A stretch of 64,000 nt of DNA. Origin: Podarcis tiliguerta (taxonomy: Eukaryota). Shown here one piece after another: positions 15,121-60,727 of the stretch. Where the stretch lies: assembly GCA_965153285.1 (NCBI GenBank), contig OZ229114.1. One strand, written 5' to 3'. The notes below the pieces were generated by a model. It was not told the DNA's origin. It did no database searches and saw only the letters and a list, made by a program, of their open reading frames with translations. Every line of letters begins with the position of its first letter. Positions within the stretch are counted from its first letter, which is position 1. The position numbers were made by a program, and so were the translations under genes.

Positions 15121-15595
15121 GTTGTTGTTGGCACACCCAGTATAAAGCCGCCATTTCCAAGACTGGATCCCTCGTCGGACTGAATGGGAAGGTTCCTAAT
15201 TCTCTGCTATACACATTGGTCCAGATCCAACTCTATGTGGTGTGTAGCAGCATACATAAACCAGAACAGAAAGTATGCATTCCATCAATTGTTTGTCAGA
15301 GAGGGGAAACCAATGTTTTCAATCCAACTGATGTTCCTCCTTGTGAATAGTGCCTATTTGGTAAACTGGCTACATATGGACAGTCTTAGCAGCTGAATCA
15401 GGGAAGGAAGCTGTCATGTAGCACTTATTTGAACATAGAAACACAAGAAGCTGCCTTAAACTGAGTTAGACTATGAGTCCATCTAGCTTACTGTTACCTA
15501 CACCAGGGGTAGGCAATCAGGACCCTTCAGATGATTTGGAGTAGAATTCCCATCAGCCCTAGACATCAAGACCAGGGGTAATGGGAGGTGTAGAC

Positions 15596-15731
15596 CAGGG
15601 TTTCCCAAACTTGGGTCCCCCAACTGTTTTTGGACCACAGTTCCCATCATCCCTGACCACTAGTTCTGCTAGCTAGGGATGATGGAAGTTTAGTCCAAAA
15701 ACAGCTGGAGACCCAAGTTTAGGAAACCTTG
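15596..15731. mobile_element. hAT-type hairpin MITE nested in an older related MITE (~15503-15760)
   Basis: Near-palindromic body; perfect 8-bp TSD gtgtagac. Confidence 0.85.
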
Positions 15732-15764
15732 GTGTAGACCAATAACAACTGGAAGGTACCAGCT

Positions 15765-20322: not shown

Positions 20323-20399
20323 TCGACATCCTTTTTATTATGTATTCAAGATTATTTGTGCTCCTAGTGATATCAGACTGTTATACATGACCCTGTGTA

Positions 20400-20582
20400 T
20401 GGGTGTTAGGGGAGGGGTAGTACCTCTGGTGGGGGACACATTGTGCTCCTTCCGGGGCAGTTTGTCCACCTTTGGTCCCTACCCTGCACTCAGCTCTCAC
20501 CTGTGGCTCCTAGAAGCTGCCACCATGCAACAGCAACCACAAACCGGGAAACAGCTTTGAATGGCTGGCTAAACCAGGTGAG
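20400..20582 (+). ncRNA. Candidate HDV-like ribozyme (degenerate) at the element 5' end
   Basis: P2 CTCACCTG(20496-20503)/CAGGTGAG(20575-20582), GGC-TCC P3/L3 start, GG before P4, GGCTAAA J4/2-like; P1 is intact only in the second copy. Confidence 0.5.
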
Positions 20583-20948
20583 GGTAGCCAATAGGTCTCA
20601 AACCCTCAGGGAGTTAGAGACTTCCCCTGCATGAGAAGACAGGCTCCAGCGGATTGAGCAGTCCAGACCAATAGCCGGTCCATTGGTCAAGATTGGGGTT
20701 TCTGCATGTGCTGTAGAGGGAATTGCGAGGCCGATGGGGCTCGTCAACCTGGGAAGGTATCCCATCTAGGAGAAAGAAAAGTCCTAAACTTCCACTGCCT
20801 AGCATGTTATCTTCGGGAGAAGAAATCAAACCCTATACAAATCCAGAATGGAGTCCCTAAGTTGGCTGAATGGTGCCTTGTGCACCTCATTCCAGCAATT
20901 CCTGCAGCCAAGCTGGTACCAAATGTATTGATTTCCTTTCCTTTGGAC

Positions 20949-21084
20949 CAGTGTTTCCCAACCTTGGGCCTCCAGCTGTTTTTGAACTACAATTCCCTTC
21001 ATCCCTGACCACTGGTCTTGCTAGCTAGGGATTATGGGAATTGTAGTCCAAAAACAGCTGGAGGCCCAAGGTTGGGAAATGCTG
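20949..21084. mobile_element. hAT-type hairpin MITE
   Basis: Long imperfect palindrome; perfect 8-bp TSD ctttggac. Confidence 0.9.
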
Positions 21085-21240
21085 CTTTGGACCACATCAG
21101 CAAGTCTGAAAGGGGGTGGGTTCCCTGTCATCTGGGTAGCCCAGGAACTCTATACACATGGGCTTGTGCCCCAAGGAGGTCATTTTGTGGTGCTAAAGCA
21201 GCGGTTTGACTTTGCACTGTGGCGTTCACACAGAGCCCCC

Positions 21241-21601
21241 TGTCGTTCCATGGACTATTGACCCTGCACCACCATGGCTTATCCTTTTCCCACTGCCACC
21301 AACCAGGTTTCCCCAGTACTATATTCAGACTCAGTCAGGTTGGAACCTATTAACATAGATTCTAGTTTATTGTGAACCCAAACAAGTTTTAAATACTTTG
21401 AAACACTGTAATCCGATTCACTCTCTCTGTCTCCTTCTGTCTCTAACTCACTTTGACTCCTATGCCTCCCACTCACAAGAAACCAACTGAACTAACTGCC
21501 AAAACCCCTGTGTTGAACCTTAAACACAGTTAGGCTCCACCCCTGGGCTTTTCTTATTGGTCAGCCTATTAACCCTTCCTCTCTCCCCCCCCAGTACAAC
21601 A
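21241..21601 (-). mobile_element. Probable solo LTR
   Basis: TGTCGT...ACAACA termini; minus-strand CCAAT and AATAAA; TSD not convincing. Confidence 0.5.
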
Positions 21602-22575
21602 TCTCCGTAATGAGTGGGTAAACGCCACACACACTCCATTGTCTCTCAAGGCAGGCAGAAGCCAACAACATTTTCATTACTGTTTACACCTGCAAAGGTT
21701 TTGGGGCATACATACTACTTCATTTCCAATCAGCGCATGTTCTGTAGCTTCCTTCTGAAATCCTGTAACTTTTCACACAACCCTATCGGAAGGCAATAAT
21801 ATTGTGACATCAGGGAAGCATCACAGCACAAGGAATAAAGCAGAATGGTGTGTGGATGGTCCAGTATAAATTCATCACTAAAGCACTATTATTGCATCCA
21901 TGTCATACTGCAGAATTTGCCCGCAAGAAACCACCAGTCTGTTGAGGGTCCCTGGAATCTAGCTCGATAGCAAATTGGCAGTATGTATGTTGTTATAACA
22001 TAACCTCAGTGTGCTGTGAACTGAGGAGATAAATACTGCAATGGAGTGTCTGTTCTCCTTTTTCTTTCTTTCTAAAGCAGCAACGGAAATCTCTCCTGCC
22101 AAGTCACTTAGAAATACAGCTGCTAGCTGCATAAAGCAAGCTGTTCCTGCTGCTATTTTGCTTGCCGAGAATGGTGATATATTTTACTTGCTTGTCAGGC
22201 AATAATGTACATTTTGTTGACATCTTAAGGCTCCAACTGAGACGAAGGCCTCAATCCCCCCTGATCTTATGAGTCAAGGCTCTTCCGCTGGTGCCTATGG
22301 GTTGACTCTGAAATTCAGAGTTTCAAACCACCCTTTCATATGCCTCCCCCCTTTGCTTTCTTTTAGAAGCATATGGCGAAGCAAGGTTGTCTCCTGAAGT
22401 GCTTCTAAATTATTGAGACAAAGCAAACAAAAGGTGGAGGGAGAACAGTCACAGGGACATAAAATGCTGCACCCAAGGAAATGAACTTAGATTCCTGCCT
22501 CCCACTTTAGTGACCTTTCCATCTGAACAATTGTGGAGAGACTTGAAACTTTCAAGCTGAAAACTTTCCCAGATA

Positions 22576-22940: not shown

Positions 22941-23302
22941 AGGGACGCTGACTAAGGGTGGCGCTGTGGTCTAAACCACTGAGCTACTTGGGCTTGCCGA
23001 TCAGAATGTTGCCAGTTCAAATCCCCGTAACGGGGTGAGCTCCCATTGCTCTGTCCCTGCTCCTGCCAACCTAGCAGCTCGAAAGCACACCAGTGCAAGT
23101 AGATAAATAGGTACCACTGCAGTGGGAAGGTAAATGGCATTTCCGTGCACTCTGGTTTCCATCACGGTGTCCTGTTGCACCAGAAGCGGTTTAGTCATGC
23201 TGGCCACATGACCCAGAAAGCTGTCTCTGGACAAACACTGGCTTTCTCATCCTGAAAGCGAAATGATCACTGCAACCCCATAGTCACCTTTGACTGAACT
23301 TA
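22941..23302 (+). mobile_element. Sauria SINE (runs into the gap)
   Basis: gggtggcgctgtggtctaaaccactgag head, gcaagtagataaataggtacc core, gctggccacatgaccc. Confidence 0.92.
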
Positions 23303-24970: not shown

Positions 24971-25892
24971 TGACAGCATTCAGATGGATTGACAATCTGT
25001 CAGGATGCTGTCAGTGGCTCCCAGCTGGTTGCCCAGGAAAGTGTAAAGACAAGGAAAAGTTTCTTACAATCCTTTTTTATTTCAAACTTTACAGAGAGAG
25101 GCTGTAGAACCCAGCTGCTTGGATAATGGCATCGTCCCAAGTGAATCTCCACCCTCCTTCTCTCCCACTTCCTCATTCATCACCATCATCATCTCCTCCA
25201 CGGGTGCTGCTAAGTGCCCTCTGTCTTTGAGCTCTTTGCTCTCCTACTTTCGCCGGGTTCTGGGAGGTGGTGGGTCTGGAATGCTTTCTAGTGACCACGT
25301 ATCAACCAGGTTGCTCCTGGTTGCTCTAGGGATACGAGTGGAAGTGGTCTAAACCACTGAGCCTCTTGGGCTTGCCAGTCAGAAGGTTGGCGGTTCAAAT
25401 CCGCACAACAGGGTGAGTTCCTGTTGCTCTGTCCCAGCTCCTGCCTACCTAGCAGTTCAAAAGCATATCAGCGCAAGTAGATAAATAGCTACCACAGTGG
25501 CGGGAAGGTAAACGGTGTTTCCGTGCACTCTGGTTTCCCGTTGCATCAGAAGCACTTTAGTCATGCTGGCCACATGACCCAGAAAGCTGTCTGTGGACAA
25601 CCGCCAGCTCCCTTGGCCTGAAAGCAAGATGAGTGCCACAAACCCATAGTCACCTTTGACTGGACTTAACCGTCCAGGGGTCCTTTACCTGTACCCTTTT
25701 ACCTTTGCTCCAACTCTGCCTTCTCCTCCTCCTCCTCCCATTATTTTCCAACTTTTCCCCTCATCTGCCTCTGAGCTGTGACCTCCCGCAAACCACTGTT
25801 GTAAATCTACACTGTCTTCCTCTTCCTCCTCCCTAGAAAGGTCAGGATAGGGAGGTGGTCTCCACCACTCCTCCTCTGCCCAGCCCCTGACA
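24971..25892 (-). mobile_element. Gypsy-like solo LTR containing a Sauria SINE
   Basis: TG...TGACA termini; perfect 5-bp TSD ccaag (24966-24970 and 25893-25897). Confidence 0.7.
25329..25706 (+). mobile_element. Sauria SINE
   Basis: Full head, core and ACCTTT-type tail. Confidence 0.92.
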
Positions 25893-27447
25893 CCAAGGAC
25901 GAAGGGGTGTGTGAACAAGGGAAGAACTAGGAGAAACAAGGGGAGAATAAAGATTGACATCGTGAACGAGGGTGGGAGGAGACCAGCAGCACCTCCTATT
26001 CACCAAGAGGCCACTGTAGAGGTGGCATAGGGTGGAGGGGACTCCTGAGGAGGCAGAAGATCTGGTTTCAAGGAGTGTGCCACAGTCGCCACTGCTACTG
26101 TGACTACGGCAGCAGCATCAAGCAATGCATTCCTTGGAGGCCATTTCTGCTGCCCTTCTGGATCCGGCCGCCCGAGGCAGTGGTCTCAGCATGCTTCATG
26201 GGTGGGTCCGACTTGGGGTCTTGAGGGAAGAAAGGTGATTATGGGTTGATAGAGGGAAGGAGGAAATGAACAAGGACTGGGAAAGGAGAAGAGGGGGGAA
26301 AGTGAGAGGTAGAGCTGGGGTGGTCAAAGCCCAAAGTCTAATTGCCAACTTTCAAAGACTGAAAATCCCGACAGAAAAGATGTTGAGCCGTTTTTCAGCT
26401 TTTTAAAACTGAAAAACAGCCGACATGGGCTGCTGTACGTCCAGATTTTCCCAGACATTTTCCTGATTTCTGCCCAGACACTGTATTCCAGATATGTCTG
26501 GAAGTTTGGCAACCCTAGTCTCCCACCTGCCAACCACAAAAACACCACATCATTTCAACCCAAAGAGAGTTAAATGATCACAGTGCAAGAGAACGCTGAC
26601 CTTTGTTTTGAAACGAAATAAATAAATATCTAGCAAGCATGCAATGCAATGTATAATGGACAAAGTGTTACATATTTGAGGGGGTTTCTTTTGTAAAATG
26701 TGATCAGCAGAGGTTAGCTAAACCAACCTGCACAAAAGCAAATTTTGCACCACTTTCCCTAGCCACTTTCCTACCCATTTCAGCTCAAGCTTGTCTTGAA
26801 ACCCACATTATTTTTCCAGTCCTGAACAAAAGCTGCCATTCATGTTGAATTGGGTATTGATTTTGTTCATGTGAAGGAGCACGGATCACGACAAAGCAAG
26901 TGGTGACCTAAAACTGCATTAAAGCAGAGAAACTCCAGAATGCACACACACAAAAACACAAAACACCAAAGGTCTGCTGTGTTAAAACTCTGTGAGATCC
27001 GTCTCCAGGCATTCTCCTAATAGGAAATAAATACCTCATGATAGGTGCGATATTGTGGTTTTGAAGCTTAGTGGCAGGTGTGGAATTAAACACTTGCTCC
27101 TTCTTTTAACCCAGCAGCAACCCTCAAGTGCCGCCACTGATGAAAATTGTGACAGGAATCAGTCTCCACAAGGCTGGTGGTTCAAGCAAGGTCACAGCAG
27201 TTGACTTTTAGTACAGCATTGAAAGCTGCGACAGCAATGCAGGCGATCTCATCAGCCTTCCAGTTTGTACATATTTGGAGGGCCGTTGGTTCCCCACTCC
27301 TTCCCTGATGAGACCAAATGTCTTGAGACAATCGTTGGAAATTTCATCAGTGTCCCTTGCATGCCAAGGCACCTGAGCCACAAAGTTCCCAGGATTCAAA
27401 TAGGCCACAACTTTATTGGTTGCAGATGTGAGCAATTTGGCTTAGGC

Positions 27448-27583
27448 CAGTGATGGCCAAACTTGGCCCTCCAGCTGTTTTGGGACTACAACTCCCACCA
27501 TCCCTAGCTAACAGGACCAGTGGTCAGGTATGATGGGAATTGTAGTCCCAAAACAGCTGGAGGGCCAAGTTTGGCCATCACTT
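27448..27583. mobile_element. hAT-type hairpin MITE
   Basis: Long near-perfect inverted arms; 8-bp TSD gcttaggc/gtttaggc. Confidence 0.9.
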
Positions 27584-27940
27584 GTTTAGGCATTGGGGTG
27601 AAGCCAGGGAGTCTGCAGGGAGTCCACTTAAGGGTAAACCACCGATAGGAGGTGCCCTATGACTTACTGGTACATCAAATAGGAGTACCCCAAGGGGTCC
27701 CCGTGGGTCCTAGCCCACATCCAGGCTTCGGACAGGATTCACACCCCGGATCCCTTACTGAGGAGGGGCAGGCGAAGGCAACAACTTCCCCTCCAACCAA
27801 ATAAAGGCTTACCCAATGCCTAACTTCACAAAAGTTCTGACAATTGCTACTAGGTAGGTGAAAACCCAATGGCCAGTGCCAATTTGCCAAGTGGAAAAAT
27901 TCCTACCCAGCCTCAACAATATGGCGACCTACAATTGTCC

Positions 27941-40280: not shown

Positions 40281-40882
40281 GGAGTGGGTGGTGCTGTGGT
40301 CTAAACCACTGAGCCTCTTGGGCATGCTGATCAGAAGGTGGGCAGTTCAAATCCCTGTGATGGGGTGAGCTCCCGTTGCTCTGTCCCAGTTCCTGCCAAC
40401 CTAGCAGTTCAAAAGCACACCAGTGCAAGTAGATAAATAGGTACTGCTGCAGCAGGAAGGTAAATGGCATTTCCGTCTACCAAATTTATCATCTTCATTA
40501 GACACTTAGAAGATTATTTCATGTCACTCTTCTAAGGAATACGTCAGACAGACAGAAAAGATGAAAAAAAATAGAAATGAATGTACTACGGCACTGACAA
40601 AATAAGATTTGTATTTTGTACATAATGGACTTGGTTGTCAACTGAATAAGCTACATTTTAATATATTATGCCACAATGTTGATTTTGACAGTATGAGAAG
40701 CTGTGTCTAATTTTTTGAGAAGTAGTTTCTAGTAAATAACTTTGCAATTGTTATCATACAGCCTACTACGTTTTTGTGGAGAAATGCTGGCTCCCTCGCC
40801 CTGAAAGCAAGATGAGCACCGCAACCCCATAGTCATATTTGACTGGACTTAACTGTCCAGGGGTCCTTTATCTTTTTAGCTT
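40281..40882 (+). mobile_element. Sauria SINE split by a ~300-bp unrelated insert (40477-40774)
   Basis: 5' half to 40476, 3' half from ~40775; one 13-bp TSD tacaaataataaa flanks the whole. Confidence 0.85.
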
Positions 40883-43004: not shown

Positions 43005-43392
43005 ATCTCTGCTCTGTGATGCTCAACAAGATAGGATGCCCACCTAAGTTTCACGATGATCATGTCCTCCCATAAGAACACCCTTGGCACAATCCACTAT
43101 GACAGCTCATCCTCAGATGCCTTCCCTATTATGAGTGGTGTAAAACAGGGCTGTGTTCTCACCCCAGCTCCCTTTAACATATTCTTTTCCCTGGTGCTCT
43201 CATATGCCTTCAGCTTGACTGATGATGGTGTGTACTTTCATTCAAGGAGCAACCTCCAAGCTGCAACAAAACATGTCTCTCCCATGTCAGTTTCTACAGC
43301 CACAGCAGGTGCTGTGACTCTGCAATGTTTTGACTTCACCCCTAAAGGTGCACTCCTCCATTGTTTCCCAAGACAGATGCCAACAACAGATG
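43005..43392 (+). mobile_element. RTE LINE fragment: RT segment joined to the 3' end
   Basis: SDAFPIMSGVKQGCVLTPAPFNIFFS (RT motif), then LYSHSRCC-like C-terminus and ccattgtttcccaagacagatgccaacaac tail. Confidence 0.8.
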
Positions 43393-44451
43393 CTGGCAGT
43401 GCTCTGCTGGCACAGGCTGGCAGGGCTGGTGGAGGGAAACTGCAGTCAGCCTCCCTCCTACCCAGGGCACAAAGTTGGTTTGGATGACTCTGCAAGTCCA
43501 GGAAGTGTGAATTAGACTAGTTTACTTTGGAATGTGGAGTGAATGGAATTTTCCAGCACTCCTAGTCTTCTGGCTGAGATCTGGGTGTGCAGAATCAGGA
43601 CTGGATGTCACTCAATTGCAACAAATAAGGTATATTTCAGGGTTAAGAAGATATGTCAGTGAAAACGAGAACAAACGAGAAAACACTTTTAACTTGCATC
43701 GGAAGTATAAGTAACAAAGACATCAAGTGGCAGAAATGCCTAACATTTACGTACTAAGGTTTAGATTCTAAATTCACACACGTATTCCTGGAAAAATAAT
43801 TACAAGACAAACTGGCTCAAGAGACATATCAAGCATACTAAATTCACAAAGAAAGGAAACAAGCTTTGTCAAAAACTTTGATGTCTGTTCCAGACATCTC
43901 CATTTTCATTTTGTTTTACTGTCAAACTCATCGTAGCAGTGGTGACACTTGAAAAGAAACATTTGAAAAAGTTTCAATTTAACTTGAAGTTCAGTTGATA
44001 CAACACAGTAGATAGCAAAGTTTTCTATTCCTGATTAAAACCTCCTTTAAATTCTGGTAGTCAGATACATGATTTCAGGGTCTAGTGCGGTGAGACGGCT
44101 TTAAGCCAGAGAGGACACTTGGGAATATGTCTCGACTGAGGCTCAAACTGCAGGTTCTCTATCATTTCATGCTCAGAAACTCCAAGCACAGATTCCTTTT
44201 TGAAGGGATCAAGAACATAAGAAAAGAAAAGGGAAACTGTGAGGGACAATGCTAAGATCTGCCAGGACAGCTTAGGAGGCAGCAAATCTCTGGCTCAGCC
44301 AGCAGGTTCCTAGCTCAGCCAGGTTCAGATGGTGGGAAGGCCTCAACACTGATTCAGCCAAAAATATACCAGCATAACTTGCTCATCCTGGCTCAGCCAG
44401 TGCAGGGTTCACTCCCTAAGCATTTCTCACAAATTAGTATAGGCACAAAGC

Positions 44452-44792
44452 AGTAGAGGTTTAGGATCAAAGTTTTCCTTCTCCTAGGTGGGCTACCTTC
44501 CCAAGTTGACAAGTCCCATCTGCTTCACTCTTCCTTCTAAAGCATGTGCAGAAAATGCATTCTTGATTGTTGGACACACTTGTCTACTCAAGCCTGTCTT
44601 TGCATGCAGGGGAAGTCCCTGGTTTAGCTAGCCAGTCGAAGCCGTTCCAGGGGTGTCGTCACTGTTGCATGCCGACAGCTTCCAGGAGCCATAGATGAGA
44701 GCGGAGTGTAGGGTGGGGACCAAAGGTGGACAAAGTACCCCAGAAGGAGCATGATGTGTCCATTACCAAAGGTATCCATCCCCTAACACCCC
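44452..44792 (-). mobile_element. Second RTE-type 5' end carrying the HDV-like ribozyme remnant
   Basis: Reverse complement is colinear with ~20400-20800. Confidence 0.65.
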
Positions 44793-46265
44793 ATTCATCC
44801 CATCACTGAACTGGTCAGTTTATATTAAAATGGGAACTGAATCAAATTTCTTCCCCAGCCCTACCACACCTTCCATTCCTATTAATACCATTTAACACCT
44901 TTGCTAGTACTAAGCTTCCAGGTAATAGCCATTCCTGCAATTCTGACCTTACATAAAACAGCCAGTGATTAGGTGGACTATGAGACATCATTTCAGTTAC
45001 ATATGGACCTCACATCCAATGCCAAATACTGGAAAGAAAAAAGGGGAACATATCATGTTTGCTTCATCCTACCAGAATACAACTGATGGCATTTTGTTTC
45101 AGCTTCAACTTTCAATGACTATTGAATAGCAGTGGTTATGGGAACAATTGAGTACAGCTTTATTACTGAAGTTCATTCACAATCCTAGAAATGGGTCACA
45201 TGGCAAATTATTTCTCTGCTTTGGGAAACAGGTGTGCCTCTAACGACATGCACCACCTTACGTGGCCATATCCTTGCCAAGATGAGGTACTAAGCAAACT
45301 GTGTTTGTTGTGCCCAGTTTCCAAAGCTTTGCTGTATCTGAAGGAGCAGCTGCATTGCACTGATGAAAAATCTCTACTTCATCCCTAAGAATGTCAACTG
45401 TTCAATATCCTCGGCATCCAATCACTGGCTCTACCAAAAGCATTACTTGTGGAGGGAAAGTGAGATAGTCTGGCTCCGCACAATGTTTGCACATACAAGC
45501 CACAGCTCACTTTCTGCTGAAACAGATTAACAAGCATAGGACATATTCATAGAATTTGCAGAGTTTGAAGGGCCCCAGAAGGGTCATCTGTTCTGCAATG
45601 CAGAAATCGCAGCTAATGAAAAGCACAAACAAATAGATTTGTAAATAAAACAACGAACGTTTTAGCGATAAATAATAATTATGTTCTGCGTAACGCCCAA
45701 ATAGTCTTCTAAGCAGTTTGCGAAGTCCAAAATACCAGCTACGCAAACATTAAAATATAAACACCCATAATTAAAACACACAAGAAAACAGTGTCATTAA
45801 AACAATACAGCAATTAAAAACTGCAGACGGAGAATTCAAGCATACGCCTTTGTAGATGCAGGTGCACCTACAAAAAAAGAATAGCACTAACATTTTTAAA
45901 AGACCGGCAAAGCAATGGTATAGCAAGATCCCACCAGAATAAGTGGAGTAAGGATCCAGCAGATCAGCAGGTGAAGAGAGAGGCTCCCAGCACAGCTGAG
46001 TTATGCCAGCATAACTCTCCATCCTCAGCTTGCTCAGCTGCAGATGCTCCAGTGTATTCCCCCCATCGTTTCTCAGCTGGGACCCAGCTGGCTCAGGCAA
46101 ACCAGGCAAATCCTATATTGGCATAAGCCTGAAAAGGGGGTGCTCTGGGGGAAGGGGAGGTGGAGGAGTGGGACCAGAGAGTGGGGATGTAAGCTGGATC
46201 CTAAGCCCATTCAGCCGAGTCACAGGACCAGGCAACCCAGTATACATTAAGCTGGCAAAACAGGT

Positions 46266-46623
46266 AAAGGTAAAGGTACCCCTGCCCGTACGGGCCAGTC
46301 TTGACAGACTCTAGGGTTGTGTGCCCATCTCACTCAAAGAGGCCGGGGCCAGCGCTATCCGAAGACACTTCCGGGTCACATGGCCAGCGTGACATCGCTG
46401 CTCTGGCGAGCCAGAGCCGCACACGGAAACGCCGTTTACCTTTCCGCTAGTAAGCGGTCCCTATTTATCTACTTGCACCCGGAGGTGCTTTCGAACTGCT
46501 AGGTTGGCAGGCGCTGGGACCGAACAACGGGAGCGCACCCCGCCGCGGGGATTCGAACCGCCGACCTTTCAATCGGCAAGCCCTAGGCACTGAGGCTTTA
46601 GCCCACAGCGCCACCCGCATCCC
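46266..46623 (-). mobile_element. Young full-length Sauria SINE
   Basis: CpG-rich, intact B box (GGTTCGAATCC on minus), ACCTTT tail, 12-bp TSD ggcaaaacaggt. Confidence 0.95.
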
Positions 46624-60229: not shown

Positions 60230-60378
60230 AGCCTGGATAGCTCAGTTGGTTAGAGCGTGGTGCTGATAATGCCAAGGTTGCAGGTTCAATCCCTGTATGG
60301 GCAGCTGCATATTCCTGCATTGCAGGCGATTGGACTAGATGATCCTCAGGGTCCTTTCTGACTCTACAGATTCTATGG
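60230..60378 (+). mobile_element. SINE made of a tRNA-Ile-like head and a CR1 3' tail
   Basis: Head closely matches vertebrate tRNA-Ile (TAGCTCAGTTGGTTAGAGCGTGGTGCT-GAT-AA); followed by ttcctgcattgcagg..ttggactagatgatcc...attctatg. Confidence 0.8.
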
Positions 60379-60389
60379 TGGGGGGGGAT

Positions 60390-60727
60390 AAAAGGAACCC
60401 CTGACCATTAGGTCCAGTCATGACCGACTCTGGGGCTGCGGTGCTCATCTCGCTTTATTGGCCGAGGGAGCCGGCATACAGCTTCCGGGTCATGTGGCCA
60501 GCATGACTAAGCCGCTTCTGGCGAACCAGAGAAGTGCACAAAAACACCGTTTACCTTCCTGCCAGAGCGGTACCTATTTATCTACTTGCACTCTGACATG
60601 CTTTTGAACTGCTAGGTTGGCAGGAGCCAGGACCAAGCAATGGGAGCTCACCCCGTTGCGGGGATTCGAACGCCGACCTTCTGATCGGCAAGCCCTAGGC
60701 TCTGTGGTTTAGCCCACAGCGCCACAC
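60390..60727 (-). mobile_element. Sauria SINE
   Basis: Reverse complement of head and core (tacctatttatctacttgc; gggattcgaac). Confidence 0.92.

Follow-up and report, generated by a model that had tools for sequence, protein, structure and literature searches.

A decayed RTE-derived element of Podarcis tiliguerta from a family whose head is a predicted HDV-like ribozyme with a hairpin in L3

Introduction

HDV-like ribozymes are an established feature of the 5′ ends of RTE retrotransposons (PMC6765202 and PMC5786205, citing Ruminski 2011), and those of the RTE, R2, R4, Ingi/L1Tc and LOA elements share both this position and the nested double pseudoknot (PMC6765202, PMC5786205). L3 builds the active site of this fold and is short in the published examples consulted. 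Genomic HDV carries one extra L3 base at the place that matches the insert reported below (bioRxiv 2022.09.22.508989), the CPEB3 ribozyme has a 4-nt palindrome in L3 itself which mediates dimerisation and competes with P1.1 (bioRxiv 10.1101/2022.09.22.508989), and the 'insertions' of RNArobo are single-base bulges (PMC4870747). A published design descriptor fixes C at L3 position 24 and CRRA at J4/2 (PMC6326823). In the HDV-like ribozyme literature that we searched no L3 helix was found; Ruminski 2011, Webb 2009 and Webb and Luptak 2011 lay outside that search and may show such a variant. Two further features described earlier are relevant here. In R2 elements with a duplicated P1, cleavage at the inner copy removes the outer one from later copies (Eickbush 2013, PMC3774820), and in drz-Agam-2-1 a P1.2 helix in J1/2, short linkers and a long P2 speed cleavage up to about 1,000-fold (Webb 2016, PMC4908430).

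We analysed a 64,000-nt stretch of P. tiliguerta DNA from contig OZ229114.1 (the window). It contains what is probably the decayed 5′ head of a bipartite non-autonomous RTE, the head of whose family we predict to be an HDV-like ribozyme with a hairpin after the seventh base of L3 and a likely cleavage site before the first G of an outer P1 repeat.

The window copies and their element family

Positions 20395-21670 (+) are a decayed copy of a non-coding element of ~745 nt built from the two ends of an RTE LINE, and a second copy lies on the minus strand. Their features are as follows.

20395..20398 (+), remnant of the P1 5′ strand (positions 4-7 of the outer GGGGTGT), the first 3 nt including the predicted cleavage-site G1 being missing
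20401..20490 (+), J1/2 hairpin resembling P1.2, from folding; it starts with the inner GGGTGT, predicted to pair with GCACTC, and the z-score of the majority is only -1.8
20493..20504 (+), P2 5′ strand, 11 pairs, plus U20504, able to pair with A20573
20505..20507 (+), P3 5′ strand, GGC
20508..20514 (+), L3 heptamer TCCTAGA with U20, C21-C22 (P1.1) and G25 in HDV numbering, by comparison with nine 7-nt RTE L3 loops
20515..20535 (+), 21-nt insert; the family form is A, a 6-bp hairpin with a 7-nt loop, and G, and this copy has mutations in two pairs of the stem, in the loop hexamer and at the final base
20536..20547 (+), P3′ ACC (family GCC), P1′ ACAAACC (family ACACCCC) and the P1.1 GG at 20546-20547
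20552..20567 (+), P4, 5 pairs
20568..20574 (+), J4/2, with the predicted catalytic C at 20569 (C75 equivalent), UAA, A20573 and bulged C20574
20575..20585 (+), P2 3′ strand
20586..21212 (+), rest of the body derived from the RTE 5′ UTR, with a palindromic MITE-like insert at about 20947-21079
21630..21670 (+), RTE 3′ tail with (CAA)n end, parted from the body by an insertion of ~415 nt
44444..44801 (-), copy 2, covering majority positions 1-419, with a degenerate outer repeat (44801-44795), a 40-nt deletion through P2′, and both P3 and P1.1 broken

Copy 1 is nearly full length and carries two later insertions; no target-site duplication was found for it. It retains P2 (11/11 pairs), P1.1, P4, U20, G25 and the J4/2 C, and keeps 4/7 pairs of P1, 2/3 of P3 and 4/6 of the hairpin; G1-G3, two bases of P1′ and a pair of P3 are gone. 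Copy 2 is more damaged. The original prediction had paired CTCACCTG (20496-20503) with CAGGTGAG (20575-20582), and this helix holds, reaching 11 pairs (20493-20503 with 20575-20585). TGGCTCC after the P2 5′ strand and GGCTAAAC before P2′ are both where it had placed them, the hairpin that it had noticed in the L3/P3 region is present at 20516-20534, and the GGGGTGT of copy 2 (44792 downward) is, as it had said, complementary to ACACCCC. It was right that P2 of copy 2 is damaged, but 'mutated' understates a deletion that takes most of the 3′ strand; likewise P3′, which it had called imperfect, is broken in both window copies, but P3 is perfect in the family (GGC/GCC). An Rfam scan of the window (E up to 5) gave no HDV-family match, and neither window copy passes our own HDV-like descriptor, the five-helix fold being incomplete in both. 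Judged from its sequence, copy 1 is very likely inactive as a ribozyme, and the window copy is without likely function.

The family to which these copies belong is large. Searching the P. tiliguerta genome by similarity yielded 4,497 first-look candidates, with 80-84% identity for the best 40, and an exact core pattern gave 96 genomic matches against 0 for the reversed control. The consensus of ~745 nt from aligned genomic copies has no long frame, ends in (CAA)n and is flanked by target-site duplications; 5′-truncated copies are also present. Median divergence from the family majority in 97 copies is 7% outside CpG and 44% at CpG, which points to an old family. The terminal ~65 nt match 15/25 loci chosen by an RTE C-terminal frame, for which the nearest protein bears RVT_1, and the body matches the DNA upstream of RTE endonuclease frames in 4/30 loci of the genome (L211, L218, L221 and L225), where it is joined to the endonuclease frame, so that the 5′ part is common to the RTE 5′ UTR. 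These matches support the RTE origin that had been proposed at the outset, and the element fits the bipartite non-autonomous RTE type described by Kojima 2018 (PMC5786205), in the manner of RTESINE1/2, WALLSI3, Bov-A and RTE-N, which likewise combine a 5′ UTR with an RTE 3′ end, without an ORF and with a microsatellite tail.

A pattern for diverged families sharing the element core returned, in the same genome, 13/13 matches that were the main family itself. A search of the genome for DUF6451 gave 0 matches and its control was likewise silent, viral contigs gave 0 matches by core pattern and 0 by protein, and 77 pattern matches in genome contigs were judged to be chance, since 0/77 fit model R1.

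Several observations were made alongside. The junction of the 5′ and 3′ halves (majority 640-745; window 21160-21212 plus 21630-21670) folds into a helix in which GAGGUCA pairs with UGACUUC (z -2.2). One locus, L099, is an extreme deletion form: ~13 nt of the outer head adjoin the 3′ tail with nothing between them, and a target-site duplication is present. At 43035-43388 (+) the window holds a separate RTE LINE fragment, a piece of the RT frame fused to the C-terminal end and followed by the same 3′ tail as the element. The palindromic MITE-like element occurs three times in the window (20947-21079, inside copy 1; 15587-15740; 27447-27585), with weak Rfam mir-5408 matches below the gathering score. 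A further short repeat, which we take to be Sauria-SINE-like, has five copies (22956-23302, 25329-25690, 40286-40873, 46266-46623 and 60391-60725), and next to one of them lies a tRNA-like sequence (60231-60303; Rfam 45 bits).

Fold of the family head

The family majority has P1 of 7 bp, J1/2 of 95 nt, P2 of 11 bp with a U-A pair and a bulged C, P3 GGC/GCC, L3 of 28 nt, P1.1 of 2 bp, P4 of 5 bp and J4/2 CUAA. We aligned 35 full-length RTE proteins and fetched 80 metagenome loci, of which 34 reach the endonuclease start and 25 have at least 400 nt upstream. Model R1 gave 1 clear match among the 80 and none strong among 30 LINE loci of the P. tiliguerta genome. The matching locus, L139 (88 bits), is the only relative in the hairpin form that we accepted; its head precedes a stop-free 1,065-aa APE-RT-zinc finger frame and is 78% identical to the family head over 330 nt. 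P1, P1.1, P2, P3 and P4 stand in nested double-pseudoknot order in both the family majority and L139, so that the HDV order of elements claimed originally is borne out; the descriptor matches both. G1 of the outer heptamer pairs with C within P1, UCC-N-A-G supplies U20, G25 and C21-C22 (facing GG) in both, from which a U20-G25 reverse wobble in L3 is inferred, and the C that starts J4/2 is followed by N-R-A (CUAA in the family, with C in 52/60 loci; the cytosine of L139 is C252); the variants CUAA and CUGA also occur in L140 and L130. The numbering and roles of L3 bases follow bioRxiv 2022.09.22.508989 and PMC6326823. Where the published forms consulted have an L3 of 7-8 nt with C24, L3 is 28 nt in the family and 26 in L139, and position 24 is A. 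Nested folding also gives rival pairings of L3/P3.

The descriptor was composed after the fold had been seen, and the majority passes it only once the CpG-decayed first G of P1.1 is restored (C-G there in 13/44 copies); with that base restored, the consensus forms both P3 and P1.1, as the original prediction implied. In shuffles of the first 200 nt any match occurred in 3/5,000, an equally good P2 in 1/5,000 and P1 within the first 3 nt in 0/5,000; the corresponding numbers for the shuffled 745 nt were 10, 0 and 1 of 1,000, and L139:78-277 gave 0/5,000 descriptor matches. Independently of the hairpin form, 9/34 RTE upstream regions carry the same core with a 7-nt L3 (e.g. UCCUCGU, UCCAAGU, UUCACGU) versus 0/1,020 shuffles, and the pair plus bulge at the base of P2 recurs in five of these nine. 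A chance fold in a GC-rich repeat end would be in keeping with a post hoc descriptor, with the absence of an Rfam match and with the weak overall z-scores (-0.4, -1.5). But the low shuffle rates, the position at the element start and the recurrence of the core in nine other RTE heads speak against it, and together with the covariation in L139 they already largely refute it, so that we hold this reading to be highly improbable.

The copies within the genome contribute differently. The whole core is intact in 0/99 distinct genomic copies, in line with the original statement that every copy is mutated; covariation among them is absent (198/500 shuffles were as high), and pairing brings no extra conservation (6.7% at paired versus 5.6% at unpaired sites), which together indicate neutral decay. 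Missing covariation is expected of dead copies, but it gives the fold no support either. The covariation that had been called for was found in P1, as one firm pair between the family and L139, and not among the genomic copies. On these comparisons the HDV-like fold appears real for the family, not for the window copy, and by every testable feature except L3 length the family is an RTE-type HDV-like ribozyme whose cleavage is itself a prediction.

Position of the 5′ end

The family head opens with two copies of GGGGTGT, the outer one 9 nt upstream of the inner. The original prediction set the exact 5′ end at 20400/44792 and cleavage at the inner copy. The alignment of the two window copies to each other does start at 20401/44791, but both extend further upstream and hold remains of the outer repeat (GTGTAT at 20395-20400 in copy 1), the start against the majority being position 4 (20395) for copy 1 and position 1 (44801) for copy 2; that end is not confirmed. 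Of 43 core-selected loci 25 reach the head, and the outer repeat is present in 16/25 (control 8/125) and absent in 9. Nine strict target-site duplications, some only 7 nt long, end at or before the outer repeat in six cases, at the inner G in two (L003, L014) and between them in one. When the outer copy serves as P1, J1/2 is predicted to form a long helix in which the inner copy is base-paired (p about 0.9; z -1.8), and J1/2 of L139 folds likewise.

L139 bears on the same point. Its P1′ is ACACCAC and its outer heptamer GTGGTGT, a G-C to U-A change with respect to the family, and its inner GGGTATT misfits P1′. The outer G is base 78 of L139. Contigs from 7 sequencing runs place the start of cover there in X2, X12 and X15 and close to it in X16/X17 (base 80) and in a single X7 contig (base 74); in X5 depth climbs from 68 over bases 70-77 to 7,383 over 78-85, and the loose-end consensuses have unrelated flank before GTGGTGT. 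These contig boundaries are DNA boundaries, not RNA ends. In these runs variation is found at positions 23 and 26 of L3 and as the pair 207/212. A second L139 subfamily carries 225 C>T (40 contigs), and a loose-end consensus reads GTGATGT (13 contigs); if linked, the two would be a second compensatory P1 pair. For a further variant, 227 A>C (38 contigs), the variants listed include no partner change.

Cleavage at the inner GGGGTGT as P1, before 20401, could account for several of these observations: its 7 nt are the same as the outer ones, 2/9 duplications end there, 9/25 copies are without the outer repeat, P1 of L178 resembles the inner copy and its flank, and cleavage at either of two P1 copies is described for R2 (Eickbush 2013, PMC3774820). 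However, cleavage there would erase the outer 9 nt from daughter copies, and 16/25 keep them; the inner copy is moreover predicted to be paired, and its sequence misfits P1′ of L139. We consider it improbable as the main site. The outer site is likely dominant because most copies keep the repeat that inner cleavage would remove, as the retained upstream copy marks upstream cleavage in R2. The predicted cleavage site is thus likely the outer G, 9 nt upstream of the earlier placement, and the inner repeat may be a minor second site. In R2 the P1 duplicate derives from the 28S target; in the element it is internal and sequestered by pairing. The arrangement resembles the P1.2 domain of drz-Agam-2-1, with its long J1/2 helix, short linkers and extended P2 (here linkers of 2 nt and 2-3 nt and a P2 of 11-12 bp), but P1.2 of the element also hides a second P1 copy, and the consulted portion of PMC4908430 mentions no L3 insert. 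A doubled P1 hidden in P1.2 would be a testable case of a retroelement 5′ end moving and becoming fixed.

The L3 hairpin

L3 of the family reads UCCUAGA, then A, a 6-bp hairpin and G, and no 7-nt parse of the whole loop exists. The first seven bases retain U20, C21, C22 and G25, so that the hairpin, which had been described as taking the place of a short loop, is present but sits 3′ of an otherwise normal 7-nt L3. In L139 the order is UCCCAGU, A, hairpin, G, with a stem one pair shorter, both of its sides being shortened; the insert measures 19-21 nt. This insert sets the family and L139 apart from the retrotransposon ribozymes in the literature consulted. The variant feature, as read from the sequence, is this helix in L3 of an otherwise known RTE-type HDV-like ribozyme, for which cleavage is predicted and which is seen in the window in a dead copy.

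One could suppose instead that the hairpin inactivated the ribozyme and that an internal promoter of the kind of Pr77 in L1Tc, with its start at the outer G, defines the 5′ end. L3 forms the active site and has 7-8 nt in the published examples consulted (bioRxiv 2022.09.22.508989), Pr77 is both promoter and ribozyme (PMC4035085), and two other RTE families of the genome have fixed-looking 5′ ends with no descriptor match. A promoter, on the other hand, needs no P1/P1′ covariation, U20, G25, P1.1 or J4/2 C, all of which are kept in two families 78% alike, and it may coexist with cleavage. We regard this explanation as unlikely and favour a family head that is a ribozyme accommodating the hairpin. 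In that case a read-through transcript would carry the element, P1.2 would fold, pair the inner GGGGUGU and bring P1 and the long P2 together, and P1, P1.1, P3, the U20-G25 wobble and the J4/2 cytosine would form the active site. Cleavage would release an RNA whose 5′ end is fixed, and the RTE protein may then copy this RNA from the shared 3′ tail. The hairpin would likely project outward where genomic HDV has its extra L3 base. That base is extruded and dispensable.

The loop of the hairpin is A-GCAUGC in the family (43-66/73 copies per base) and A-ACAUGU in L139, so that its 6-nt palindrome covaries. Both forms occur in the runs; in X5, 207 A>G was seen in 84 contigs and 212 T>C in 90, the two positions being the loop pair. 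Duplex energies of the two palindromes are -8.0 and -4.6 kcal/mol, and a matching hexamer stands at element position 239 in both families (GCATGC, GCATGT), about one such partner being expected by chance in 700 nt. The palindrome fits three readings, namely a CAUG loop closed by a lone pair, a kissing dimer, or pairing with the hexamer at 239. The last two would make the hairpin a working module whose loop kisses a second element RNA or the hexamer at 239, tying cleavage to dimerisation or downstream transcription. The CPEB3 dimer, too, involves an L3-region palindrome within an HDV-like fold, but in the element the palindrome has 6 nt and stands on a separate hairpin. We give the module little credence, since about one chance partner is expected and the lone pair by itself explains the covariation. 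A natural helix in L3 kept across RTE lineages would widen the known architecture of the fold and, if true, offer a new place for grafting domains; searches with a fixed short L3 would then miss a large ribozyme class in animal genomes.

RTE relatives

Of six parses with L3 plus an insert, four were rejected as alternative readings of 7-nt cores and one (L178, at another place) is doubtful, which leaves L139. L129:147-490, L159:398-450 and L178:54-150 are RTE heads with an HDV-like core without P4 (7-8 nt from P1′ to the J4/2 C) and with a one-pair P1.1; they resemble minimal forms described from microbiomes, and L129 and L178 have a fitting upstream P1. The RTE head L140:150-400 has two near-identical G-rich P1 candidates in tandem, which suggests that P1 duplication recurs. 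In the P. tiliguerta genome, L240-L246 form a young RTE family, presumably BovB-like; it has numerous open frames of 1,036 aa and a sharply defined 5′ start common to its copies, and it gave no descriptor match. The L139 element itself occurs in nearly identical form in five organisms as well as in metagenomes from freshwater and from invertebrates, and horizontal transfer of the L139-type element is possible.
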